A DNA stretch of 63,997 nucleotides, the filler included, from Ionaspis alba (taxonomy: Eukaryota): assembly GCA_964255285.1 (NCBI GenBank). It is 8 parts of 8 records of this genome, joined end to end, with 100 filler letters (N's around TTAATTAATTAA, not from the genome) between each part and the next. Parts side by side here need not be neighbours in the genome. Positions count along the whole stretch, not along the records: positions 24,139 to 32,077 come from CAXUUL010000790.1; 7 more parts are not named here. The stretch is one strand, 5' to 3'. Position 1 is the first letter of the stretch. Each line of letters opens with the position of its first letter. The notes under the pieces were generated by a model. That model searched no databases and had not been told where the DNA came from. It was given only the letters and a program-made list of their open reading frames with translations. This document shows, in pieces, positions 2,913 through 56,211 of the stretch. The position numbers and the translations under genes were made by a program.

Positions 2913-3494
2913 ATGTCGGATGCCTATGAGCGCGAAAGGTATGACTGCACAGCTGACTATTCGAGCCGATCCATCGTGCTGATCCCGTCCCTAGGCAGAA
3001 CAACTCCCGCCTCGATGAACTCTCCTCCAAAGTCTCCGCTCTTCGGGGCGTCACAGTAGACATCTACGACAATGCACGAAGTCAGGACGTGATAGATAAC
3101 AGCGTATGTACCTGGCCCACTCCAATATCTGCCGTCTACAGCGAGAACCTTATACTAATAGTTGGGCATGTGATATACAGAATGAAGTCTTCTCCAACCT
3201 CTCCACCTCTCTCAAAGGCAGCGCCAACCGCCTGGGACGGATGGCNNNNNNNNNNNNNNNNNNNNNNNNNNNNNNNNNNNNNNNNNNNNNNNNNNNNNNN
3301 NNNNNNNNNNNNNNNNNNNNNNNNNNNNNNNNNNNNNNNNNNNNNTCTCCAACCTCTCCACCTCTCTCAAAGGCAGCGCCAACCGCCTGGGACGGATGGC
3401 GCAGCAGGGTAATAAGGTCGCAATATTGAAATTGGCTGGCGGAATAATAGGAACTGTGATTCTGTCTTGGTGGATACTTAGCTTCTTCTGGTAG
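2913..3494 (+). CDS. BET1: Bet1-like Qc-SNARE, tail-anchored; interrupted by a false assembly gap
   Basis: Spliced product MSDAYERE|RQNNSRLDELSSKVSALRGVTVDIYDNARSQDVIDNS|NEVFSNLSTSLKGSANRLGRMAQQGNKVAILKLAGGIIGTVILSWWILSFFW*: SNARE heptads plus a C-terminal transmembrane helix. Confidence 0.85.
3191..3400. repeat. 55-bp exact duplication flanking a 100-N gap (unmerged contig overlap)
   Basis: 3191-3245 is identical to 3346-3400. Collapsing the two copies restores the BET1 reading frame. Confidence 0.92.
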
Positions 3495-7951: not shown

Positions 7952-8051
7952 NNNNNNNNNNNNNNNNNNNNNNNNNNNNNNNNNNNNNNNNNNNNTTAAT
8001 TAATTAANNNNNNNNNNNNNNNNNNNNNNNNNNNNNNNNNNNNNNNNNNNN
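7952..8051. other. Artificial scaffold spacer N44-TTAATTAATTAA-N44
   Basis: 12-mer with stop codons in all six frames, centred in Ns; identical at seven positions. Confidence 0.97.
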
Positions 8052-15712: not shown

Positions 15713-16099
15713 TGCAGAGGCTTAGGTACTCAGTATCACCGAAAAAGCTGAGCCTGTGAGTGTTCGCAGCTTTACTTCGGTCAAGATGAAAGGCACGCAG
15801 GAAGCTGTTTGTGTTTGTTGACTCGTCTGGAGTTCTGTATTGATTAGAGGACAGTCGTTAGAAGGGTTCTGAGCTGCGCAAGATTTTGCGCAAGACTCTT
15901 TGAGGTCCTCTTAAAGGAAGGTGCTGTATAGTAGCTATACGACTATGGAATTGCAGGAGCAGAGCCTTGAAGGCAACAGCTTTGGGCGGAGCTTTTCCCN
16001 NNNNNNNNNNNNNNNNNNNNNNNNNNNNNNNNNNNNNNNNNNNTTAATTAATTAANNNNNNNNNNNNNNNNNNNNNNNNNNNNNNNNNNNNNNNNNNNN

Positions 16100-16884: not shown

Positions 16885-19800
16885 ATGGACGGATTGACTG
16901 GCACGGCTAGTGTCATAGCTGTCATTCAGCTCGCCTCCAAAGTCTTTGATCTATGTCGAGACTACTACTCCGTGGTCAAGGACGCAAGGAAAGACATCCA
17001 ACGACTTCGCAACGAGGTCATAGACTTACAGGATATTCTCACTAGCGTTCAAGATCTCGAGACCGATCCAGCGAAATCGTCTATCTTTAGCTTGCTTACT
17101 CGCATTGACGGCCCTTTGGAACAATGCCGAACAGAGCTATCCGCCCTTGCCAAGACTTTAGAGACCAAGGATGGTATGCGACTTCTTGGAGTTCGTGCTC
17201 TGAAATGGCCATTTAGCAGCAAAGATGTGGACAAGACCATCAGGAATCTCGAGAGGCAGAAATCGACGTTCAATCTAGCATTGACTACAGATCAGGTGTA
17301 CGTGAGCAAATTTACTAGCGTGCAAATGCTGTCCCCGCAGGAGCTCGTGAATATGAGCTATACGCACCCGAGAGACTCTCATATACTGATGTTCTACGAA
17401 GGAAACTATCTCAGGCTATTGATCGAGGTGTGACAGAGCTTGTTACACGAACTCGAGAGGAAGACCGGGACAAGATAGTCCAATGGCTGTCCGTGACAGA
17501 CTTTGCATCTAATCACCATGCGGCCCGCAAGAAGCATACGAAGGCGACAGGCACATGGATAACCAGCCTTGCTGACTTTGAGCGTTGGAAGAATGCTCCC
17601 AACTCACTCATCTGGCTTCACGGTATCCCTGGTTGTGGCAAAACTATATTGAGCTCAACGGTCATCGAGCATTTGAAGATGCTTTCGAAGACGAAACCGG
17701 ATGTTGCTGTTGCATATTTCTACTTCAACTTTGATCAATCTGCGAAGCAGAACGCCATTAACATGCTGTCTTGTATTGCGGCACAACTGTGCTTAAAGAT
17801 GGTCATCATACCGGGGAGCCTCAAAGCTTTTTATGAGCAATATCGCTCGGGCCAGGATAGGGCCAACATCAGAGACCTCACAAATGTGCTGAAGGATTTG
17901 TCAGTGTCTTCAGAGCTCCAAGATATTTTCATAGTTTTGGACGCCTTGGACGAATGTCCCAAATTCGAAGCAAGGGCGGAACTCCTTGAACTACTTCTCA
18001 CCATCAAGGGGTGGGCAGCCTCAAAAGTGCATATCCTTGTTACCAGCCGCAAGGAACCAGATATCGAGGACACACTACTGCCAATAGTTGGCACACCACC
18101 AATCCCTATACAAGGACTCAATGTCGCAAGCGACATAGAGTTGTACATTAAAGCTCAGCTGGCTACCCGGTTCAACAGACTATCAGCAGACTTAAAAGCT
18201 GAGATCGAAGACACGCTGGTGAAAGGAGCAGATGGAATGTCAGTCTTAAGCCTTCCAACCCCGAATCTAGACTGAAAATCTTCTAGGTTCCGCTGGGTAT
18301 TCTGCCAGCTTGAGGCTCTTCAGAGATGCCCTCCGCTACCCAAGAAAATTCGTAAAGCATTGAAAAGTCTGCCTATTACTTTGTATGATACTTACGATCG
18401 GATTCTCCTCAGTATTGAAGACGATACATGTCATGAAATCGCGCGCCGTGCTTTGCTCTGGGTGGCTTTTTCGGAACGACCAGTCACTGTGGAAGAGGTC
18501 GGGACGGCCGTAGCTGTAAACAGCGACGGTTTTGATGCAGACGACCAATTACCGGATCCTCGGTACATCCTAGAGCTTTTAGGCAGCTTGGTCACCACGA
18601 CCCAAATTACTGACTGGACCTTCAACTTCGAAATATATCGTCCCATATTACATGATTTTCATGAAGAAGATATCCCAGCCCACCAAAAGGCTGGAGAAGA
18701 TGGGCAAGGAGAACACAATAAAGAACAACCAAATAAGAAAACAGGACGTGCCACCGAACTCCTGACACTAGCTCATTTCTCGGTAAAAGAGTATTTGAGA
18801 TCTCAGTATTCCCGAGCTGGATTGTGCCCCAACATCAGATTTTCCGGACCGTCCAGCCATCATTTCATTGCGGCATGCTGTCTTCACTACCTTGCTCACT
18901 ACCAACACTCCGCTACCAGACCCATAGAGGATGGTGATAGATCACTATCTCGTAAAGATGCTCACGGGTTTCCACTTCTGGGGTATTCGCTTCGCTTCTG
19001 GCATGTCCATTTCAAAAAAGCTACTGTAGAGCTTCAGCAGAGTATGAAGGAGATTCTGATTCATATGGTGTTTTCACAATCAGGTATACCATGCTTTATA
19101 CCAAAATCACGGTCCGGAGATCCAGTATTATACACCATTGTATGGCAAGAGCCTTGCATATCGCTTCCATTTGCGTGTCGGATCGGCCTTGACATTCTCT
19201 TTGAGATGCTGCTTGAACATGGAGCTGATGTTAATGTCAAACATCCAATGACTTTCAGAGAACCATGGTTTCCACAACACTTTGGCAGCCCAAGCCCTGA
19301 CACAACACTGTGGAACAAAGACTCTTGTACTAAAATAAAATACCGGGAGAGAACCGCTTTACATGATACGATAACGCTCGGGAACAGTGACCTGGCAGAA
19401 ATAATGCTAAAACACGGAGCTGATGTTAATGCAAGAGCTGCACATGGGTTCACGGCCTTGCACTGCGCGGCTACTAGCGGAGACCTAAGGTCAATTGAAT
19501 TGTTAGTTAAGTTTGGTGCTATCTTGAACGCTAGAGATAGACTCTGGGAATGTCCATTGCATTGTGCAGTGCTCGAGGGTGAAATCAATGTGGTGAAACT
19601 TCTGCATGATCTAGGAGCCGACATAAGTGCAGCAGACGGGTTCGGGAATAATCTGCTTCATTATGGGTGCTACGGGAAAGGGAGTAGGGTTGAGAAGGTT
19701 TCTTTTTTGTTGGAACTCGGGTTGGATCCACTTGCTGTGAATGACAAGGGTAAGACAGCAGAACAAGTTGCGGCCGAATTGGAAAAAAGCGATCTCGAGC

Positions 19801-20039
19801 GGCTGTTGCGAGCTAGAAGAGAAGCTCAGACACTAAGGACGGAGGCGGAGAAGAACACGTACGAGGCCACGCAGAAACAGAAACGGAAGGAAGAGAGACA
19901 ACGTTGTATTGAAGAGATGGACGAGTTTGGCATTCAACAAATTCCTGGATACAATCGCGCCTGGGATCTTGAAGACTTGATAAGAAGAATAAAAGCAAAC
20001 ACGCCTCAAGCTACCCCGGGCAACCGTTCTTTGGATTAA
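16885..20039 (+). CDS. Fungal NLR-like protein: HeLo-like N-terminal domain + NACHT + ankyrin repeats (~1000 aa, 3 exons)
   Basis: MDGLTGTASVIAVIQL...ALKWPFSSKDV; Walker A WLHGIPGCGKT; Walker B FIVLDALDEC; LVTSR; GADGM|FRWVFCQL; LAHFSVKEYL; ankyrins (HGADVNA, TALHCAA, PLHCAV). Introns 17298-17401 and 18239-18286 give 3003 nt in frame. Confidence 0.93.
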
Positions 20040-23783: not shown

Positions 23784-24138
23784 GATTGTGAGGGAACAAG
23801 AGAGATACACTAGGGAATTGCAGACACAGGAAGAGAAGGACTGTTGAGAGGAAGACATGGACTTGATGAGTGAAGAGTTCAGAGCAGGGAAGGCATGACG
23901 AGCGTCAAGGTTTCATTGGAGGGCTAGTATAGCTATCGACTACCTACTTCGTCACTGGGACGAAGGATTTAATGAGTCACCCCAAAACAATGTTCCAAAG
24001 GCTCAAACCCAAAAGAGGAGCGCATCCAAGATTCATCCNNNNNNNNNNNNNNNNNNNNNNNNNNNNNNNNNNNNNNNNNNNNTTAATTAATTAANNNNNN
24101 NNNNNNNNNNNNNNNNNNNNNNNNNNNNNNNNNNNNNN

Positions 24139-26095: not shown

Positions 26096-27637
26096 ATGAT
26101 TCACTTCTACTTGCTTTCATGTCTGTCTCTACTGTTCCTACAATATACAAGTGCCTCCTCAGAATATTNNNNNNNNNNNNNNNNNNNNNNNNNNNNNNNN
26201 NNNNNNNNNNNNNNNNNNNNNNNNNNNNNNNNNNNNNNNNNNNNNNNNNNNNNNNNNNNNNNNNNNNNGGGGATCACTCCAACGCGTCTTTATCCAAGCT
26301 ACACCTCCTCCATGGGACTTTGCCTCATGAAGTAGTTTGTACCGAGAATCTGACGCCATTCCTCAAACTGCTACCATGCAAAGGAAAAGCTGGAATCTCA
26401 AGTCTCCTAGATGGACATAAGCTTTTTGATGCATCATGGCAGAGTATGGCAGTTGATGTGCGACCCGTTTGCCCCAACGATGGCTCGGAATGTATTGTGG
26501 AACTGGAGCAAAATGTTGATATGGTCCTGGATATTGAGCGTTCAAAACGACCGAGAGGTAAATCTGCCTCCTAATTAGTTGTTCCTATCCATGACTAATT
26601 ATTTAGAAAACCCTATACCAAGACCTGTCCCCCAAGAAAAGCTTGTTTGCGACACGACAAAGCCATACTCGTCGGACTATGCGTGTTATCCGCTCGACTT
26701 GTTTCAAGGACAACCATGGAGTCTCAGCGAAGTCTTCGGTCGTCCCATCAAAGGTACTTGTCTAGCTTCTTCATCAAGTGACACAAAAGTGCAGACAGTA
26801 TGCATTAATGTCCCTCATGAGCGGGATGTTTATACATCGCAAGGGACTACCGAATACAAATTGCCAAGTGGTTTTTCTAGGTGCTTTGCTGTGCCAGCAA
26901 CAGACAACTTTGAGATGATGTTGCCTCAGCAAGATCTCAACATCACTACCCCAATTGCACCCCCTCCTCTCTACGCTGAACGGTCAATTACCGGCCACGG
27001 GCAGGAACGTGGAGGTGTCCAGGCTCTGCTGACCAATCCATCTACCACTTCTGCCATCGAGTTTGTCTATCTCGAATCCCTGCCGTGGTACATGAAACCA
27101 TATCTACATACCCTGACTGCCGGAATTCCTGGGCAACCTGCCAAGCCTTCGAGCATTATCAAGGACATCTATTACCGCCCGGGACTTGACAGGAAACGTG
27201 GCACGCAACTCGAAGTTCGCATGATGATACCGGCTTTGTCGACTGTGACACTGACTTATGACTTCGAAAAAGCCATTCTACGATACACAGAGTACCCTCC
27301 TGATGCAAATCGTGGGTTCGATGTGGCTCCTGCGGTCATTCGTCTCATTACCCCTATTTCGAAAGCAGGATCAGGTCCGGTCTATCTCCGGACAACGAGC
27401 TTACTTCTTTCACTACCTACTCCCGATTTCAGCATGCCTTACAATGTTATAATCCTGACTAGCACGGTCATAGCCTTGGCTTTTGGTTCCATCTACAATA
27501 TATTGATCCGAAGGTTTGTTGGCGCTGACGAGGTGCAAGGGTACGACACTGGTAAGATTCGTGGAATCGTGCTTGAAAGGTTGAAGATGTTGAAAGAGAA
27601 GTGGTTAGCTGGGGACACGGAGAAGAAGATTCAATAG
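26096..27637 (+). CDS. GPI16: GPI transamidase subunit Gpi16/PIG-T (part hidden in the 26169-26268 gap)
   Basis: Signal peptide; HGTLPHEVVCTENLTPFLKLLPCKGKAGI, YTEYPPDANRGFD, LPTPDFSMPYNVII followed by a TM helix. Confidence 0.95.
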
Positions 27638-28293
27638 ACTCATCATTGCCTAGGCAAATTCCAACAAGCCGGCCACGGATGCTCAGTTCAAAATCTATGC
27701 ATGGAACAATGATTGCTTGTCCCAGAGTGCTCCATTTGACAAGCACTGTTTACGACATGATCGTGTCCGAACAGTTACAGATTATGGGTCTTACTGAACT
27801 TGCCCGACGCTCCCCCTGGAGTAGCTCACGCAGCACAGCAACTCGGAGGCGCCCTTCATTGACCATTCAATTGGTTCTGCAGCATCCGCTGAAGGTCATG
27901 AAATTTGCTATGTCTACTAATTCTGTTTGGCAACGATACGTGTTGTTCGAGATGGCAGGCTTGAAGCTCGATGCCGATTTGTCAACACAGGCCTTTCGAA
28001 GCACTGTTACGTTACAATTGTGGTACCAAGGAGTTCTTCTCTTTGAAAAAAAATTAATTACGGACAAGCTTCAAATCCCCAACAAACATTCCCAATCAAT
28101 TAATGAGTGTAACAGTACCGTGTTGGTCTTGTGAACGGTCTGTGCAGATTTGACCTGTTGGTGTAGCCTCAGTTGTGCTTGCATGATTAATCACTTTTCT
28201 CCATCCCAGTGGCGGCCAGGAGAAAGCATCTTCAAAGGCAATGATCTCCCCACTGCGTGAGTGCTGATCCACCCGTATGTTCAGTGAGCCCGT

Positions 28294-29754
28294 CTATCTC
28301 TTGATGGTTGCTTGGATAACGCTCTCTGATCCGTCCTCAAGAGTCCAGATTTTCTCCACTTCAAGCCCGACAGACATTAACAATGAACGCCACTGCTTCT
28401 CCGTTCTCTCCATGCCGGCGGATAGACTCATCATCTGAATGTCCAATGAAGCCGGGAGCAAGCCTGCTTTCGTTCCAGGAAGGACAAAATCACTGATGAT
28501 AATCTTGGAATATCCTGGTATCATAGCGCTCACCGTGTTTCGGAGAATCGTGGATGAAGTGCTGTCAGGCCAATCGTGGAATATGGCGCGGAAGTAGTAT
28601 GCACGAGCGCCTATCCCGTTTTAATTATTTCATTAAGCGCAACTGTTAGAGACCAAGCACGAGGGGTAGCTAGTTACCTTGCACAGGCTGAGGCTCTAGG
28701 AAATTGTACTCCAAAGTCTCAATTCTCTCCTCTCGAAGGTCTAAATCGACAAGAACTTCGCCCTGGTCTTCCAGCACAAGGCGGCCACCAATCTGGGGAT
28801 ATCTCTTCCTGAAGTTCAGAAGATCGTGTCCACGACTTCCCCCCACGTCCACAAGGAACACAGCGTTTGGATCGTTCGCGAACCTTTTGCTGAGCTCCTC
28901 CATCGGGTATAGATCAAGCCAACTAGGCTTTCCTTCCCTACGACAAGCCATGTAGGAGCTGAACGCTGCCTGCTGTTCGGGATTCTTCTTGAGCCATGAA
29001 AATACGTCCGTGCCTGTCGCGTGGTAAAATGGTGCTGCGTGATCATCTCGGATGTTCTGATATCCGCAACGTCGCATGTACTTTGGAAGCTCTGCTGCTG
29101 TCTGAAAGGCTAGGTCAAACCTGGCATTCAAACAATTAGATGATTGGCTCATTACAACAAGTCCCGGCCGGGCCAAACTGACATGCACTGCACTCCGTCT
29201 TGGCCAAATGGTTCTACCATGATATTGGTGCGCACATTGGCCTTGTAGGTCTCAACTCCAGTCTCATCACAAAGCCCAAGTGCCGTGACAATTCTCATGA
29301 GACGAACTATACAATGTCAGCCCAGGTCCGTCACATTCAGACTGGGTGCTGGTGATGCCTATCAAAGCAACGTCACCGCCTGTCTCTACCGCCAGATTGT
29401 TGGCAGTGACTGCTTCGCCATCACTGCATTTACCAACAATCGCTTGGAACAACCCCAGATCTACCGCCACCTTCAGGGCCGCATTCTGTTGTGGCTTGCC
29501 TCACGGTCAGTTGACACTCAAATAAAAATTTGACGTGAACTCTCTGACTGAGCCCTTATCTAGAGACTCACCTGATATATTATCCGCTGGACAGTCTCTA
29601 CGGAAGTTTCGACCGCCAAAGTCAACTCATTGATCGCTGCACGAAACTTAGCGTGGGTCTGATGGTCTCCATCCGTTGACAGATCTGCTTGTCCTGCTAG
29701 CCTGACTTTGTCGAGTAAGGACGAGATGAGAGACACGTTGGGGATTGAACCCAT
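28294..29754 (-). CDS. SAM-dependent O-methyltransferase (Methyltransf_2, secondary-metabolism type)
   Basis: LVDVGGSRGHDL, LVLEDQ, YNFLEPQPVQ|GARAYYFRAIFHDWPD, GMERTEKQWRSLL; several GT-AG introns. Confidence 0.92.
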
Positions 29755-30527
29755 TGTGATCGATTGTCGTTTCCACGCTTATTGTGATGTAGGAATGTTT
29801 CCAATGAATTGGCATTCGAGACGTGTTGAATAAAAGGAAAGGTTGGCAATAGCAAGGGAGAGAAGGAAACAATCCTGACCTGCTTTTATTTGCAGGTATG
29901 AACCACTACCGACTAATGTTTCATGCATGATGAATTGCATACAAAAGTCATCAGACTGTAGACTTGGAAGATCTTGGCATATTTGGATACAGGCACCAGC
30001 ACTGATTGGATCAAGGAGCATGGGCATGATGCATCCTCTAAGCATAAGCTATTGACTATTACCCGTTGAGTCGTTGATCGACTAGATTGCCGAGTTCAAC
30101 ATCTAAAGCTCATTTTTTCTTTTGCTGGAAATAGAGAAGCAGTGTGACGTGGCTCAAATTATCAGAGTTCCGGGTCTCGAAAGTTTTGCCTCGGAGGCTG
30201 TCCTTGTGTCAGATTGCCGCTGAATGTGCCATGCGATATACATGTCGCCTGCAGGAGATCATCGTGTATGCACGCACACTGACTAGCCTATGATCTCCTG
30301 CGATGAATGTCCAAATCTCATTGCCGAGCTTCGACCTGATTTTGTACTCATCAATGGGATGACCATATTACGCTCAATACAACACTACGATGCAACTATC
30401 GTCGTTCGGTGATCCAAATTGTTCGGCGAGTACGAGAGCTGGACAAAAATACATACGAGCTCTCTCGGTGCAATGGAGAAGTAATGAGGAAATCTCGTTC
30501 CTCCGACCGATGTACCACCAGCTACGG

Positions 30528-30535
30528 TATATAAA
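30528..30535 (+). promoter_or_regulatory. TATA box upstream of the secreted DUF6973-like gene
   Basis: TATATAAA about 150 nt before the ATG at 30679, followed by a CT-rich leader. Confidence 0.55.
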
Positions 30536-30678
30536 GGCCGGTCGAGGAGCTTCTTGCATTCCTCTCTCCAAGCTCTCCGATCTGTTGCATTCCAAACTTC
30601 ACATCATTTCGACCTTTCTCTCTATTCCTTCGTGCACCCTGTTTGTTTTCCTGGGACAACCAGCCCAAAGCCTACAAA

Positions 30679-31140
30679 ATGAAGTCCACTCTTTCCGTAC
30701 CCTTCCTCCTACTCATTGGCGGCGTACTCTCCAACCCTGTCCCTTCCTCGCTCAGTCGCCGCGAAGACGAGTTTGGCTATTGCATCAGGCCCAGTAATAT
30801 TTCGAAATGCTTGACTGCCAAAACAGACGCCTCAACCGCGACCACGGCCGCTGAAGTTGAATTTCCGGACACCCTGCACAACGGTAAAGGCGATGCTTTC
30901 CGACACTGCTACTGGAGTGCCCTCATGACTCGTCATCTGGGAGAAGCGCAGGCGAAAATCTTTGGCGATCTGCACGAGAACTCCGAACTGGAGCAGCCTC
31001 AGGAGGAGCGCGCAATGGATTTGGCGAATAATGCTTCTGGACGCGCGATTGGTACTGCCAGTGCGGATGAAGATGAGGTCTATGAAGCTTGCTATAGTGC
31101 TGCGAGTCAGGGAAAGTTGGTTACCATTGTCTGTTGTTAG
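30679..31140 (+). CDS. Small secreted protein (153 aa) with DUF6973 / minimal-Wnt-like domain; intronless
   Basis: ATG in CAAAATG context; signal peptide MKSTLSVPFLLLIGGVLS; propeptide ending in RR; motifs GKGDAFRHCYWSALMT, GDLHE, MDLANNASGRAIG. Confidence 0.85.
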   Translation: MKSTLSVPFLLLIGGVLSNPVPSSLSRREDEFGYCIRPSNISKCLTAKTDASTATTAAEVEFPDTLHNGKGDAFRHCYWSALMTRHLGEAQAKIFGDLHENSELEQPQEERAMDLANNASGRAIGTASADEDEVYEACYSAASQGKLVTIVCC

Positions 31141-33787
31141 GAATTTGATTGAAAGGTCTCTGTGCTGAAGATGTGTCCGAGCGATAAAGTTAGTGTGAGG
31201 GACTGTTGAGCGAAGAGGACGGTAAAGCAACGGAGCAAATACGAAAGGTTTCTATCCTGGGCTCTCATGCTTCGCGTAAGGTGCACCAGTCTTGGACTGC
31301 ATGACGATAGTTCCGCGCCTATAGATGAGCTCCTCAGTATTGAACACTGCTGCTGTATTTGACAATTCGATTCATCTCCATATTCTTGCGTGCTTGAGAA
31401 GAACTCGTAGCTGCACATGTTTTCCTAGATCGATGTCCAGCAAGCAACCCTTGGTTGCTATATCCTAGGACTAAATGTGGTAACACTGACTAGAAGAGAC
31501 AGCCTGATTGGAGTAGCCATTACTTGGCGCATGCTCATTCGCAGGGTCTACTTCACAGTGCCTGTGAGCTGGTACTACCCGATGTCTAGACCGCTTTCTG
31601 GTGTACTGCAGAAACTGTAGCGGGAAAGCTGGAATCGTAGACTCAAACAATCAGAGGATGTCCGACAGAGGTACATCTGCAATTTCGGACATGCCGACTT
31701 CAACACTGGAATGAAATACGACTAAACTTAGTGAGACAGACTTGTTCCACCAACGGAACCAATCGCATAAGAGACATTATCCAATTAGATTCTAATACAG
31801 ATTTCTGTAGCAAGGTGGTATAGCCGCAAGGCTAGAGCATGGGGGATGTGGCCGTATGCATATAATACACGCTCACGACAACAGAGCTCATAGAAGGTCA
31901 AACAGTAGGCAAAGTGATAGAAACAAGACAATCGTTCTGGCTCCAGGAAATGTGGTGATATGATTGTGTGGATCGAGTACGCTTGTGAAATTGGACTTCC
32001 TGTGGGTCAGAAACAGTTTATGGTTACCGTATGTCGGCGGCTAGGGAGAAGCGAAACAGTAAAGCGATAGTTGGGCCNNNNNNNNNNNNNNNNNNNNNNN
32101 NNNNNNNNNNNNNNNNNNNNNTTAATTAATTAANNNNNNNNNNNNNNNNNNNNNNNNNNNNNNNNNNNNNNNNNNNNTTCTTCAAAGAGTGTCTCGGAAA
32201 GAACACAGCGAATATTTGGGTTCATCAGATGAAGAGACGCGAGAGGTAAAAGATGACATGACACTCACGATCATTTCCTGTTTGCTGCAATGAAACATAA
32301 CCTGTTGTACCCCTATTGAATACGCCTCCGAGTCAGTGAAGGCTCATCACCAAACATCCCGTCCCAAGGCTATGAAAATATGCAGGGAAACAATCTACAG
32401 ATCAGGCTGACGCCTTCTCATCAGCTTCTTCAGTCGACAGGAATGAATCAGTGCCACTGACCTCATTAAATCAGAATTTTCAGTGTATATATGCTCATTA
32501 CCAGTCAAGCCCTCGTTACAAGGCGGTGCCGGCTCAAACAGTGTGAATATTGTTCATCATCTCGAGATGTATCCTGCTCTTGCAAAACACAGCTGACAAG
32601 GAAAAACCACTATACCTACGCACATGGTCACGTTAGTGTAAGCTCGTGCTGGTGTCGCAGTACTTCTGGTATTAGGTGTATAGATGTTTTGATCAGCTGA
32701 CGAGTTCTCAACAAGTACTTCTCCCTCCTAGCACCCACTGAAGTTTGTACGCCTCAGCTTTTGACGAATGCTAGGGGTAGAGTACACAGTCTGTCCGCCC
32801 GTTCGTTCAAGATTCGTCATATGGTTTGGTGTGTAGGGGAGTGAAGTGAAGGAGTAGTTCGAGTCCTTACCTGCACAGTTGAACTCCGGGTTAGTTATAA
32901 GTCTTGTTCAGGAATCAACAATATAGAATGCAGAATTATAGCAGAATATCAGACAAGGCTGAAACTAGTAGAGACAGAATCGACATTAATTGTTCGGATT
33001 GAGGAATGCCTTTCCGTGTCGTATGGTCATCACCTGGAAAGGACATAGCAAAGACAAGGAAAAAGCACGAGGTACCTTGAGTTTTGAATTGCTTGCAGAG
33101 TGTTTCGTCTGCAGCAACAGGGAGCCATTGTCTGGGGCAGGAGTCAGCTTCGTGTGCTCTTCACGTCATTGCAGTAGAAATTGATAAGATGCAGTGGTCA
33201 GAGTAATTCTAGAGTTGTAAGGTGATCATTCATGACGCTATATGATTTGGATTGTTCGTTGATGTGCTCATCATTCTTGGAGAGTCTGTTCCAGGTTTTA
33301 TGAATAACTCACCTTGTTCGATTGAGGAAGAGAGGATATTTGGTGGTGCTCGAAATTTCCTAAAAGCTCCCGTTGGCGCTAAGCAACAAGAGGCTTGGCA
33401 CCTTTCCGCCTAGGACCTCAGCGGCCTAGGCCCTTGTTAGGGGGATGTAAAGGGTCACAAAACAAGAGGCGTGCCGCCGGAAGATCCCCGGACTCGCAAG
33501 GAATTAGGCTAGATGTGTAACGACGAGACCTTTCCTCCCTCTCATAAGACAAATTAGGTGCTATTTCTTCACATAGTTACAACCCGAATTTCTAATTTCT
33601 TCGTAGTGAACTGAGACAGGCAGACAAAAAATGTTGAAGTCCCTAGAAGTAGAGACCTTGGCACAATGACGCACAACTCCGACAAAATGCGGTCGAATCG
33701 CCCTCCCATTCTATGGTGTTCTGCTCCATGCAAGCCATATCCATCAAGACCTCCAAGCCTGTAACCAGTGACGACCTATATGAATGT

Positions 33788-39990: not shown

Positions 39991-42900
39991 AGCTTATGTT
40001 GTATGGTGCCGGAATTTTCTCCCCAATTACATATTCTCTGTCCTATCATGGTCTCTCTTCAGTGACGGACGTTACAAATGTGAAGAGCTCCTTCCATCAA
40101 TNNNNNNNNNNNNNNNNNNNNNNNNNNNNNNNNNNNNNNNNNNNNTTAATTAATTAANNNNNNNNNNNNNNNNNNNNNNNNNNNNNNNNNNNNNNNNNNN
40201 NAGGGGGGGGTTGTCTAGTGTCTAGAGAGCAAGTTTCCGGGCTGGAAAATTCGGAGGCTTGGTGAGGATGGCTGGCATTGTGTACTTGTACTTTCGGAAA
40301 AGCAAGCTACTCGTCATAAAGATTTGATAATGCATCTGACATCGACGTTTCAGTCGTGCACTATGTAGCCACGAAAGAGCTGCCTTATTCGAGTCATGCT
40401 AGTCACGGTGGTCTACAAGGACTGTTGCCTCCAAATGAGACAGGGTTATTATCTCTGCCTCGAGGCTGGTGCCCTCTTGAATCTAGCAATTACGAGCAAC
40501 GTCGGATTGGTCAATATTGGTCGCCTTTCTTCTGGAAAGACAGAACCTTTTCTAGTTTGTCTTGACTGCGGCCAGTATCTAAACCATTGTCTGATGTTCG
40601 GAGGTTGCGGCTTGTCAAACTAGGACGGGCTGGAGAAAGCGGTTCCGAGACTGGCGGTGCAGTCTCATACGCGCGGCATGAGTACACTACATGTGGCAAT
40701 GTCGGGCCGTTTGGTCATGAGCCTCAACCCTGGAAGGGCAATCCACGCATGGATCGGGAAGTTTTGCTCCGAGAAGAGCTTTTCTTCCGAAATGGTATTT
40801 GGAAGACTGATGTATGTTCTCTTCGTTTTGCCGTTTGCTTGGCATAGGCTGAACAGAGAAAAGAGCAATGCTCCAGGGTATATACCCCATGAGACGATGA
40901 AGCAACACAGCGATGTTACCAAAAGATTCCAAATAACAGACGAGCTACTACTGGGGCTTGTAATCCCCTACCATTGTACATGAGAGTCATCATGAAGTGG
41001 GTGGGAATAACAACAAGGTAAAGACAAAGCGGCTCATAGTTCAATGTTGGAGATAGCTTTCTTGACAACGACTGTTTTAAAAGAGTGCTTTTGCCAGTGC
41101 TCGAGTAGGCAATATCACAGTTGTGGACACGGGAGACACTCTGCTCAGGAATAGATTAGATCTCTAGATCCACAAGGGGAACTGGCCATCGGGACAGTGT
41201 TGATAGTGTTCGAAGCTAGAGACTGAATCAGGGAAAGTCTGGCCTGTGAATGGACACATATGTACGTACTCAGGTGAGGCTGACCACTTGACCGACTGTA
41301 ACACAGACCATACCACAGATCATGGTGGCTGGCACCGGCACATCAGATAGTAGGAGCACCCATCCCAAGGTGGACTCGGCATCAAAGAGCATGCAAGTCA
41401 AAGGTGCAGTATGGGGTGATCTCGGACCGCTCGACAGGACAGGACCGCATTACCAGGCTGCCGTCGTGCGGGTCAGTTGGGTGGGAGCACATTACATATG
41501 TTACGAAAAACGCTATGCGGTGGTCTGCAACTCTCGCAGGCAGGAAGGAGTAGTAATCTAGCTCGCGCGTCGTAGCAAAGGGAGCAAGCACGCATACGAA
41601 TGGGTTTCACACAGCCCCATCTTGGAGCCAGCCCTTAGAACACAGTCTCTCTCTCTTGCTCCCCAAGCCACCCAAGGGAGCAACAAGCGAGGCCTGCCGC
41701 GAAGGAACCAACCAACCAGCCAAAAACCGTCCTCCATCCCTCTCCCATCCTTCTTTCCCCCCGGCATCACCCGTGAGTGGTCTTGCTGGCTTGCTTTGCT
41801 TGCTTCGCTCAGTGGCACTCCGACCTATGAGCAAAGCAGGAAAGCGGGGCTCTCAATATGAAGCGAGCCCATCCCACATCTTCCCAAGAGCCTCAACCGT
41901 GCAACGCCCTGGAAAAACGCCATCGCTGTCCACGAGACTCGGGCCAGAACTCTCCAGACCTCGTTTCCCTCCAACGGAATCAGCGCTTCCATAGAAAAAT
42001 GATCCTTACCGTGCCGAGCTGCTGCTGGTGCTTACCTCCAGTTTGAAGAGATCTTTTCTTCTACGGATTCTACCCATCGTCCATCCACCCTGCCATCACC
42101 CCATCACCCATCATCATCATAACCATCATCATCGCACAACATCCCGCAGCGTCATCTTCAGCTTCCTCGAGAACAGCGATCCTCCACCACCTTCCTGTCT
42201 GGAGACCTGTGCCGGCAGGTCGTCGTGTGTCGCTCGGGCCCAATCGCCCGACGGCGCCGGGGGGTCTTGTCTTTGAACGCCATTTCTTCGCATCAGCTAC
42301 CCTCCTCGCTGCTTGTTGTGGTACCCTCGCAACCAAGCCGCCCATCCATCCAGGCCGCGAAGGTCCGCCGTAGCCTCCTTGCGGAATTTGCTTGGGTTAT
42401 TCGTTCTGGAGATATTCGGTCGTCATCGCGACTTTCGATGCTTGGGATCGTCTTCGGTGTTCATTGTCGTCGGTTTGGATATCGCTGAAAAGGTTATCGG
42501 CCAGAGAGGCTCAGTATTAAGGTTTTGAGGCTCTATTTGGTGCGAGTGAAAAACGTAGTCCGTGGCCGGCTGTTAGACAGGTATGCCAACTTTCTTTGCT
42601 TTCTTCACTCAGAACTATCCACCGATTATTGCCTACAAGTAAACTGTGCTAGATGCTTGCTTTTGCTACTTGATATTAATCATCGAGCGTTTTTTGAGCA
42701 TAATTGCCTAGTCTGTGCGACGTGCGTTTGATCGCTATTCTTAAAGCTACGGGAGCATAATGATATCGAACCGTGCGAAGGCATTGAGGGTAGCATTCCG
42801 GCGTTTTTGTCAGCAAGCGCAGTCTGAAGTAACAAGTCTCCTTTTGTCCTTCAGCTCTCGCTGCCGAGGACGAGTGCTCCATCGCGTCATGCAACTCGAC

Positions 42901-48115: not shown

Positions 48116-48370
48116 NNNNNNNNNNNNNNNNNNNNNNNNNNNNNNNNNNNNNNNNNNNNTTAATTAATTAANNNNNNNNNNNNNNNNNNNNNNNNNNNNN
48201 NNNNNNNNNNNNNNNTAGTGTCGAAGATTGAGGTCAAACACTAGGACACATTTTCGTGGATGACGTTCTAAATTATTCTAACCAATTTGTGCCTTTAAAG
48301 AAGGCCCTGTCATCTACATAAAAATGCCCAATTCCACAAAACGTCAGACTCCTCCGCTGTAAGACGTCAT

Positions 48371-56067: not shown

Positions 56068-56211
56068 TCTACCATCTCCAGGGTGAGTTCTGTTCTTCGA
56101 GATACAGGAGGNNNNNNNNNNNNNNNNNNNNNNNNNNNNNNNNNNNNNNNNNNNNTTAATTAATTAANNNNNNNNNNNNNNNNNNNNNNNNNNNNNNNNN
56201 NNNNNNNNNNN

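Follow-up and report, generated by a model that had tools for sequence, protein, structure and literature searches.

The DNA considered here, called the window throughout, is a stretch of 63,997 nucleotides from Ionaspis alba in which eight parts of eight records of the assembly GCA_964255285.1 are joined end to end, and the gene of interest lies at positions 30679..31140 on the plus strand. One open reading frame (ORF), running from ATG to TAG, spans exactly this interval; the ORF list and the translation give a complete single-exon coding sequence (CDS) of 153 codons plus TAG, whose product is a predicted secreted protein carrying a Pfam DUF6973 domain over residues 40-144. This protein is a member of the Min-Wnt family (DUF6973), which belongs to the SAA-Wnt clade (SAA, serum amyloid A) of the Lipocone superfamily. 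Upstream of the CDS, a TATA-like box (TATATAAAGG) occupies positions 30528..30537 (+), 151 nt 5' of the ATG, and is followed by a pyrimidine-rich leader; it may act as a promoter element, and the start codon itself has an A at position -3. The TATA box, a dibasic RR site and six cysteines had all been listed in the original prediction, and all are seen in the sequence.

The N-terminus of the protein carries a predicted signal peptide (residues 1-18, MKSTLSVPFLLLIGGVLS; 30679..30732, +), as previously claimed, recognizable from a lysine in the n-region (K2), a Kyte-Doolittle nine-residue hydropathy maximum of 2.88 at residues 9-17 and a V-L-S tripeptide ahead of N19, which puts V and S at -3 and -1 of the putative cleavage site. 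This region is modeled with a low predicted local distance difference test score (pLDDT 59-64), and a leader of like type is present in aligned relatives. The signal peptide is followed by a propeptide-like linker (residues 19-28, NPVPSSLSRR; 30733..30762, +) with a Kex2-type end, at which processing may take place: the two arginines (residues 27-28) stand immediately N-terminal of the folded domain, whose modeled start is at about residue 29. Of the 23 fungal-type rows in alignment A2, 8 can be read by eye to have KR or RR just ahead of the domain, the window protein included. The mature part, a Min-Wnt/DUF6973 helical domain in the AlphaFold2 model, would comprise residues 29-153 (30763..31137, +), with a calculated mass of about 13.6 kDa and a pI of 4.6; the hydropathy profile of the whole protein displays no hydrophobic segment C-terminal of the signal peptide.

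Membership in DUF6973 (PF22322) is borne out by Pfam, where residues 40-144 align with profile positions 7-122 of 124 with 84.6 bits against a gathering cutoff of 27 (E 5.3e-24), values that exclude a chance match. The original prediction had proposed a profile comparison with DUF6973, Wnt and SAA alike, and of these only DUF6973 is matched; Wnt (PF00110) and SAA (PF00277) remain unmatched even at E≤10, and no NCBIfam family is matched by the window protein. An exhaustive HMMER search retrieves 3022 cluster representatives at E≤1e-3, 397 of them at E≤1e-10; the 50% cluster to which the window protein belongs is represented by a 71-aa fragment (P0067) identical to its residues 83-153.

Conservation was read from an alignment of the first 150 of 162 family proteins of at most 260 aa, taken from 205 collected, whose rows span Actinomycetota, Pseudomonadota, fungi and others. 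Three motifs stand out and are intact in the window protein, as had been claimed. The first, DAFRHCYW (residues 72-79; 30892..30915, +), harbors R75 and the predicted helix-2 catalytic histidine H76, with D72 kept in 149, R75 in 146, H76 in 149 and W79 in all 150 rows. The second is the HE pair (residues 99-100; 30973..30978, +), in which H99 is found in 146/150 rows and E100, the predicted helix-3 glutamate, in 149/150. The third, MDLANNASGR (residues 113-122; 31015..31044, +), contributes the predicted helix-4 aspartate and the NxxGR element (D114 in 148 rows, N117 in 147, N118 in 145, G121 in 147 and R122 in 106). Every near-invariant residue of the family is present in the window protein.

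The six cysteines (35, 44, 77, 138, 152 and 153) fall into two groups. Cys35, Cys44, Cys77 and Cys138 are common to 94, 94, 138 and 133 of the 150 rows, respectively, and probably form two disulfides, Cys35/Cys44 and Cys77/Cys138. The Cys152-Cys153 pair (31132-31137) sits at the very end of the protein, two residues past the ...LVTL(K) end of its relatives; the other 149 rows mostly have gaps in these two columns, and cysteine is not among the four commonest residues in either. Two N-glycosylation sequons are also present, one at N40 and the other, N118-A-S (31030-31038), within the MDLANNASGR motif. The latter was considered as a fungal adaptation and rejected: an N-x-S/T at this position is found in 17/23 fungal-type rows versus 22/127 others in alignment A1 (21/29 versus 10/42 in the tree set), but these striking raw counts reduce to 3-4 independent contrasts, with a sign test p of about 1. 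The S/T of the sequon is also present in the nearest actinobacterial rows.

The Lipocone superfamily was defined by Burroughs, Nicastro and Aravind (eLife 2025, PMC12419801), and they characterize the Min-Wnt family by a histidine in helix 2, a glutamate in helix 3 and an aspartate in helix 4, together with an sNxxGR motif. The window protein has this polar set in full (H76, E100, D114 and N118-A-S-G121-R122). The term "DUF6973" was not met in the literature searched; DUF6973 is nevertheless equated here with Min-Wnt, and the window protein placed within it, because two Coprinopsis relatives, XP_001836672.2 (the mature part of P0005, which matches the window protein with E 8.1e-27) and XP_001838919.1 (P0097), are rows 748 and 1147, matched by eye, of the Min-Wnt table of PMC12419801. 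Further close sequences of fungal type are listed there as well.

The AlphaFold2 model (pLDDT 89.9, predicted template modeling score 0.80) reaches pLDDT values of 95-99 over residues 31-150 and comprises helices at 29-35, 38-61, 70-87, 89-101, 108-127 and 131-143. The five long ones (38-61, 70-87, 89-101, 108-127 and 131-143) would fit the Min-Wnt soluble core of four helices plus a fifth. Exhaustive structural alignment of the model against 48,161 representatives of the PDB returns the Bacteroides effector BteO at the top (Z 13.8, root-mean-square deviation (rmsd) 3.0 Å over 124 residues), followed by human WNT8A (Z 11.2, rmsd 3.2 Å over 121 residues) and Drosophila WntD (Z 7.0); below WntD the scores fall to Z 5.5 or less, with human PSS2 at Z 4.6. 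Foldseek against the PDB gives no match at E≤0.001 and lists BteO, SAA and Wnt3 as weak rows only, among them SAA1 (probability 0.60) and SAA3, including the retinol-bound form of SAA3. At the level of sequence, a 150-sequence profile run against all PDB sequences has one clear match, 9UU0 (BteO fused to maltose-binding protein), at E 3e-12; the remaining rows are Wnt3a and Wnt3 only (E 0.17-0.3), aligned over HE...MD..NN..GR. The nearest language-model clusters include SAA families, which serve as leads only. The kinship with Wnt and SAA put forward in the original prediction thus holds at the level of the superfamily, in view of the rank of Wnt3a/Wnt3 right after BteO, the WNT8A fold match and the Min-Wnt table rows.

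The gene is embedded in fungal DNA. All matched positions of the DUF6973 profile (7-122 of 124) lie inside a single ORF, and the neighboring genes are split: one ORF holds profile positions 5-90 of casein kinase II beta (CK2-beta) and another holds 90-182, while Gpi16 and RIC1 are each distributed over several ORFs, in line with the claim of a single exon in an intron-rich genome. Contamination is excluded because the stretch 26269..32077, which is free of N, joins the DUF6973 gene to split fungal Gpi16 and O-methyltransferase exons. CK2-beta, RIC1, LUC7, a major facilitator superfamily transporter and a transthyretin-type HIUase also lie in the vicinity. For the RIC1 exon, the best relatives reach 78% identity, and lecanoromycetes that form lichens, among them Pleopsidium, Teloschistes, Gallowayella and Bacidia, make up the named matches at 60-63%. 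The DUF6973 gene has a GC content of 0.536 and a GC content at third codon positions (GC3) of 0.562, within one thousandth of the top value of its neighbors (GC3 0.435-0.561). No immunity-like gene is seen next to it, its neighbors being the O-methyltransferase and casein kinase II beta genes, and the ORF overlapping its 3' flank has no Pfam family.

Several observations concern the DNA around the gene. Between the DUF6973 gene and CK2-beta, which are 2.6 kb apart, the interval 31500-33000 has a GC content that falls to 0.40-0.41 and contains no ORF that reaches 120 aa. On either side of the gene (30418-30583 and 31644-32000), the DNA contigs of run X1, which looks like the source sample, contain a minor second sequence variant, with a depth of about 28-31 versus 98-120 and with 9 and 30 differences, respectively, alongside small indels; this variant may stem from another haplotype or strain within the sample. 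The run X1 contig over the CDS has one difference only, at 31178, outside the CDS, and none within it; the contigs of run X2 are identical and of low depth, and run X3 has no match. Paired 44-N runs recur about every 8 kb (7952-8051, 16000-16099, 24039-24138, 32078-32177, 40102-40201, 48116-48215 and 56112-56211) and look like masking rather than assembly gaps; four 100-N gaps are located at 3246, 26169, 58824 and 61289. Elsewhere in the window, a 587-aa open frame at 18276-20039 (+) encodes ankyrin repeats (Ank_2, 93.6 bits), its N-terminal part having no Pfam match. Comparison of 12 neighbor peptides with 80 metagenome loci carrying relatives of the gene gives no shared neighborhood, and only one weak ankyrin match (locus L130, 32% identity over 80 aa).

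DUF6973 is mainly a bacterial family. In a scan of one bacterial genome per species, relatives are found in 163 of 169 candidate stretches; 80 of these, mostly from Actinomycetota and Pseudomonadota, were retained, with Rhodoluna and Rothia highest at 49-50% identity. These bacterial relatives, together with an RHS protein of Delftia, agree with the stated abundance of the domain in secreted actinobacterial proteins and at the tips of RHS-type toxins. A fungal-weighted profile has 536 matches at E≤1e-10, and among its top 120 matches, from which taxa were listed, are at least 16 named fungal species in six classes. They comprise Pezizomycetes (Pyronema with two copies, Geopyxis, Choiromyces with two, Tuber and Ascodesmis), Dothideomycetes (Coniosporium, Tothia and Eremomyces, the last with two copies), Eurotiomycetes (Endocarpon), Lecanoromycetes (Caeruleum heppii), Agaricomycetes (three Coprinopsis species with several copies each) and chytrids (Borealophlyctis and Rhizophlyctis). 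Rotifers are listed as well, in line with PMC12419801, and none of the heavily sequenced mold or yeast genera appears among these top 120 matches. The distribution in fungi is thus as patchy as had been supposed. Full-length identity of the window protein to any relative is at most about 51%, Tothia being the best, with 56-58% within the domain. In seven fungus-like metagenome contigs, found among the 45 of 80 loci inspected, the whole domain again lies within one ORF; these contigs have a low density of long ORFs and a GC content of 0.46-0.53.

A maximum-likelihood tree was built from 92 rows and 125 columns after nine identical duplicates were dropped; its rows are the window protein, 9 named fungi, 19 fungus-like sequences, 9 of unknown origin and 54 bacterial ones, the last being genome loci from among the best 45 and other, presumably bacterial, proteins. 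All fungal rows form, together with several actinobacterial clades, one weakly supported assemblage (65/87), adjoined by a Corynebacterium-type clade (97/95). The rows nearest to the window protein are fungal, and its pairing with Pyronema is without support (37/90). The fungal-versus-bacterial label changes four times on the tree (four to six times across bootstrap trees), and none of 200 bootstrap trees has a single change. The chytrid pair from Borealophlyctis and Rhizophlyctis (P0018 and P0073) is nested in an actinobacterial clade (98/98), beside Glycomyces (100/87; loci L023-L025, L032 and L035), suggesting that the chytrid and ascomycete copies stem from different transfers. In the approximately unbiased (AU) test, a single fungal clade is marginally disfavored and not rejected at 0.05 (log-likelihood difference 51.75, p-AU 0.0705); a sister relation of the window protein to the Caeruleum heppii copy is likewise not rejected (p-AU 0.547), the constrained tree being 3.02 log-likelihood units better.

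The family being mainly bacterial, its fungal distribution scattered and the fungal rows placed among bacterial clades, we read the ancestry of the gene as bacterial, and probably actinobacterial; fungi would have received it in one or a few old events, after which copies were lost or passed on again. The transfer looks old because the composition of the gene equals that of its neighbors and the Caeruleum sister relation stands unrejected. A recent acquisition private to the lineage was also considered, and the host-like GC3, the fungal nearest rows and the same sister relation argue against it. Horizontal acquisition, as originally proposed, is therefore retained, and what does not hold is the idea of an event that is recent or peculiar to the Ionaspis alba genome.

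What such a protein might do can be approached through BteO, the only characterized relative of the window protein in the literature searched. BteO is a GA3 type VI secretion system (T6SS) effector of Bacteroides fragilis (PDB 9UU0; He et al., PNAS 2025, PMC12541434), and according to that paper, it makes the target bacteria elongate, form blebs and lyse. BteO loses its toxicity, and binds the C-terminal domain of OmpA less, when mutated to R143A, H144A, H167A, E168A, D187A or D191A, and its immunity protein plugs the same groove and mimics the OmpA fold (PMC12541434). In the profile alignment, anchored on Q148 and Q183, the residues R143/H144, H167/E168, D187 and D191 of BteO align with R75/H76, H99/E100, E110 and D114 of the window protein; all six positions essential for toxicity are thus kept, one of them as Glu for Asp (E110 versus D187). 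These are exactly the positions predicted to be catalytic in PMC12419801. The terms "lipid II" and "Wnt" are absent from PMC12541434, and no link of BteO to Min-Wnt, DUF6973 or the Lipocone superfamily was found in the literature searched, so the coincidence between the toxicity residues of BteO and the predicted catalytic positions, as seen in the alignment, appears to be new to that literature. Elsewhere in the superfamily, enzymatic action on lipid head groups is proven: TelC acts on lipid II (PMC12419801), and YfiM, VanZ and Llp1 are described, in a preprint (10.64898/2026.09.16.752124), as Ca-dependent pyrophosphatases of lipid-linked oligosaccharides that need Lys/His, Glu and Asp.

Taken together, we consider it probable, at roughly 60%, that the locus is an intact single-exon lecanoromycete gene for a secreted Min-Wnt protein of bacterial origin that acts as an antibacterial envelope toxin, likely by catalysis. 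Its ancestors would have been antibacterial toxins that bacteria, mainly Actinomycetota, secrete or inject. The horizontal transfer into fungi would lie far enough back for the gene to have acquired host composition and a fungal leader made of a signal peptide and a dibasic site. An acidic helical domain of roughly 13.6 kDa would then be released outside the hypha and would most likely harm neighboring bacteria at their cell envelope through the groove lined by R75/H76, H99/E100, E110 and D114/N117/N118. The likeliest chemistry would be metal-dependent and would cut polyprenyl-linked wall precursors such as lipid II at their phosphate or pyrophosphate link. The fungus itself would need no immunity protein because its surface lacks the targets of the toxin.

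A more specific proposal, put forward here as tentative and rather doubtful, is that the fungal Min-Wnt is an active metal-dependent pyrophosphatase or phosphoesterase of lipid II-type precursors, which a lichen fungus secretes as a diffusible protein antibiotic against the bacteria of the thallus, and that the OmpA interface of BteO is in fact its catalytic pocket. If that were true, the enzyme would have to stay harmless to dolichol-pyrophosphate (dolichol-PP) glycans in the endoplasmic reticulum (ER), which the short propeptide or glycosylation of Asn118 might achieve.

A number of points weigh against the toxin interpretation and its catalytic part. He et al. describe BteO as non-enzymatic and read the six residues as an OmpA-binding interface, and the enzyme assays of PMC12541434 were limited to an amidase substrate and to peptidoglycan sacculi, which were tested for lysis; no report of Min-Wnt activity on any lipid was found in the literature searched. 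A diffusible protein cannot readily reach periplasmic targets in Gram-negative bacteria, an active pyrophosphatase would come into contact with dolichol-PP-glycans on its way through the ER, and glycosylation at the N118 N-x-S sequon could block the groove. The sequence data on the gene are DNA, and its transcription as well as the secretion and processing of its product are predictions. The presence of a dibasic site in only 8 of 23 fungal-type rows is a further difficulty, and the backbone of the tree, with 37/90 for the pairing with Pyronema, is too weakly supported to fix the donor and date of the transfer. The earlier wording of a probably catalytically intact protein accordingly stands in part only: the predicted catalytic residues are near-invariant in the family and present here, but that they catalyze anything is a deduction, and the one relative that has been studied is reported to be non-enzymatic.

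The most serious competitor, which we regard as unlikely, keeps the secreted toxin and dispenses with catalysis: the groove would bind and disable OmpA-C-like peptidoglycan-anchoring domains and thereby loosen the envelope. BteO, the closest solved structure and sequence relative, binds OmpA C-terminal domains directly, loses that binding in the same six mutants and is countered by an immunity protein that imitates OmpA (PMC12541434), and its six positions are kept here with the single E110 for D187 exchange; human SAA, from a sister family, is also reported to bind OmpA, as cited in PMC12419801. However, the His/Glu/Asp/Asn set is near-invariant in 150 members, an evenness that would be commoner for catalysis than for an interface that has to track its target, OmpA-C-like domains are periplasmic and therefore not easily reached by a diffusible fungal protein, and lipid-linked substrates were never assayed for BteO. 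The catalytic reading is favored over simple binding because the same polar set appears to be invariant across hosts with very different targets, and because periplasmic OmpA domains would be hard to reach from outside. A complex prediction for the window protein with the E. coli OmpA C-terminal domain scores 0.00, below the mark, and carries no weight either way.

It is also conceivable, and in our view quite improbable, that the protein is secreted and is not a weapon, being used to bind or remodel lipids, either in the wall or membrane of the fungus itself or during exchange with an algal or cyanobacterial partner, as an SAA- or Wnt-like carrier or signal. The host is indeed a lichen-type fungus, SAA families turn up among the nearest language-model clusters (again as leads only), the weak Foldseek rows include SAA1 and SAA3, one SAA3 entry having retinol bound, and animal Wnt illustrates that the fold can drop catalysis and become a signal (PMC12419801). 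Unlike animal Wnt as described there, though, the window protein retains all of the predicted catalytic residues; the scattered distribution with its lineage expansions, such as the several Coprinopsis copies, suits genes of conflict better than core physiology, and bacterial relatives occur in toxin contexts, for example with RHS in Delftia. Finally, the ORF could be a leftover of an early transfer, silent or in decay, that no longer yields a functional product. Knowledge from DNA only and a C-terminal Cys-Cys found in no relative might lend this idea some color, but it is hard to credit: the reading frame is open over its full length, retains every near-invariant residue and four conserved cysteines, has a TATA box upstream, a start codon in good context and an intact leader, and is free of variants in the run X1 contig despite the minor haplotype in both flanks.

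With an antibacterial envelope toxin as the preferred interpretation, the gene of this lichen fungus can be annotated as encoding a secreted, toxin-type Min-Wnt (DUF6973) protein with bacterial ancestry; it extends a published, thinly sampled group of fungal proteins. The general idea is already in print for fungi: PMC12419801 describes secreted fungal Min-Wnts of bacterial origin, acquired from bacteria and predicted to act as diffusible toxins. Because they are small, soluble, disulfide-stabilized and standalone, fungal Min-Wnts lend themselves to a biochemical test of whether Min-Wnt domains are phosphoesterases of the lipid-II type, as PMC12419801 predicts, or OmpA binders without catalysis, as reported for BteO, and the answer bears on the function of the ancestors of animal Wnt and SAA. 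One possible outcome could be a protein antibiotic used by fungi.

Among known systems, TelC, VanZ/Llp1 and YfiM share with the window protein the polar set of the superfamily, made up of a helix-2 His, a helix-3 Glu and a helix-4 Asp. These proteins cleave phosphate links in polyprenyl-linked glycans, but they belong to other families, VanZ and YfiM being membrane proteins and neither of their families ranking among the best 50 rows of either fold search, and their activity is not transferable to Min-Wnt by kinship alone. Animal Wnt shares the helical core over 121 residues with WNT8A and, less closely, with WntD, and Wnt3a is alignable over the HE and MD..NN..GR motifs. Animal Wnts have Cys-rich inserts that the Min-Wnt type lacks, and they have lost active-site residues that are kept here (PMC12419801). 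A metazoan Wnt is marked by such inserts and by a lipidated hairpin; the window protein, a 125-aa domain with six cysteines and no PF00110 match, is not one and resembles it in fold only. SAA, of which SAA1 is the weak Foldseek match, is a sister family and not the family of the window protein.

The secreted actinobacterial DUF6973 proteins have the same domain, with 40-50% identity to those of Rhodoluna, Rothia, Pseudonocardia, Glutamicibacter and Corynebacterium, and Cys35-Cys44 and Cys77-Cys138 of the window protein are common to most members. Bacterial forms differ in often having long N-terminal delivery or anchoring regions (Delftia with RHS domains; proteins of 300-2100 aa) and in their expected pairing with immunity genes. 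BteO, whose envelope damage has been demonstrated, is at once the best structural match, the clear profile match and the keeper of the same six essential positions, but it is injected through the T6SS, carries additional sequence at its N-terminus (the construct begins at residue 83), is paired with the immunity protein BtiO and is described as non-enzymatic. The window gene has instead a eukaryotic secretion leader, no immunity-like neighbor and a eukaryotic host, and its structure-based identity to BteO is only about 18-22%. The fungal Min-Wnts of PMC12419801 resemble the window protein in having a signal peptide ahead of a standalone domain and in sharing its H/E/D and NxxGR motifs, and the Coprinopsis sequences of the table are 43-50% identical to it. 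Compared with them, the window copy comes from a lichen-type lecanoromycete, stays at or below that full-length identity of about 51% to any relative, has an RR instead of a KR site and ends in a Cys-Cys pair of its own.

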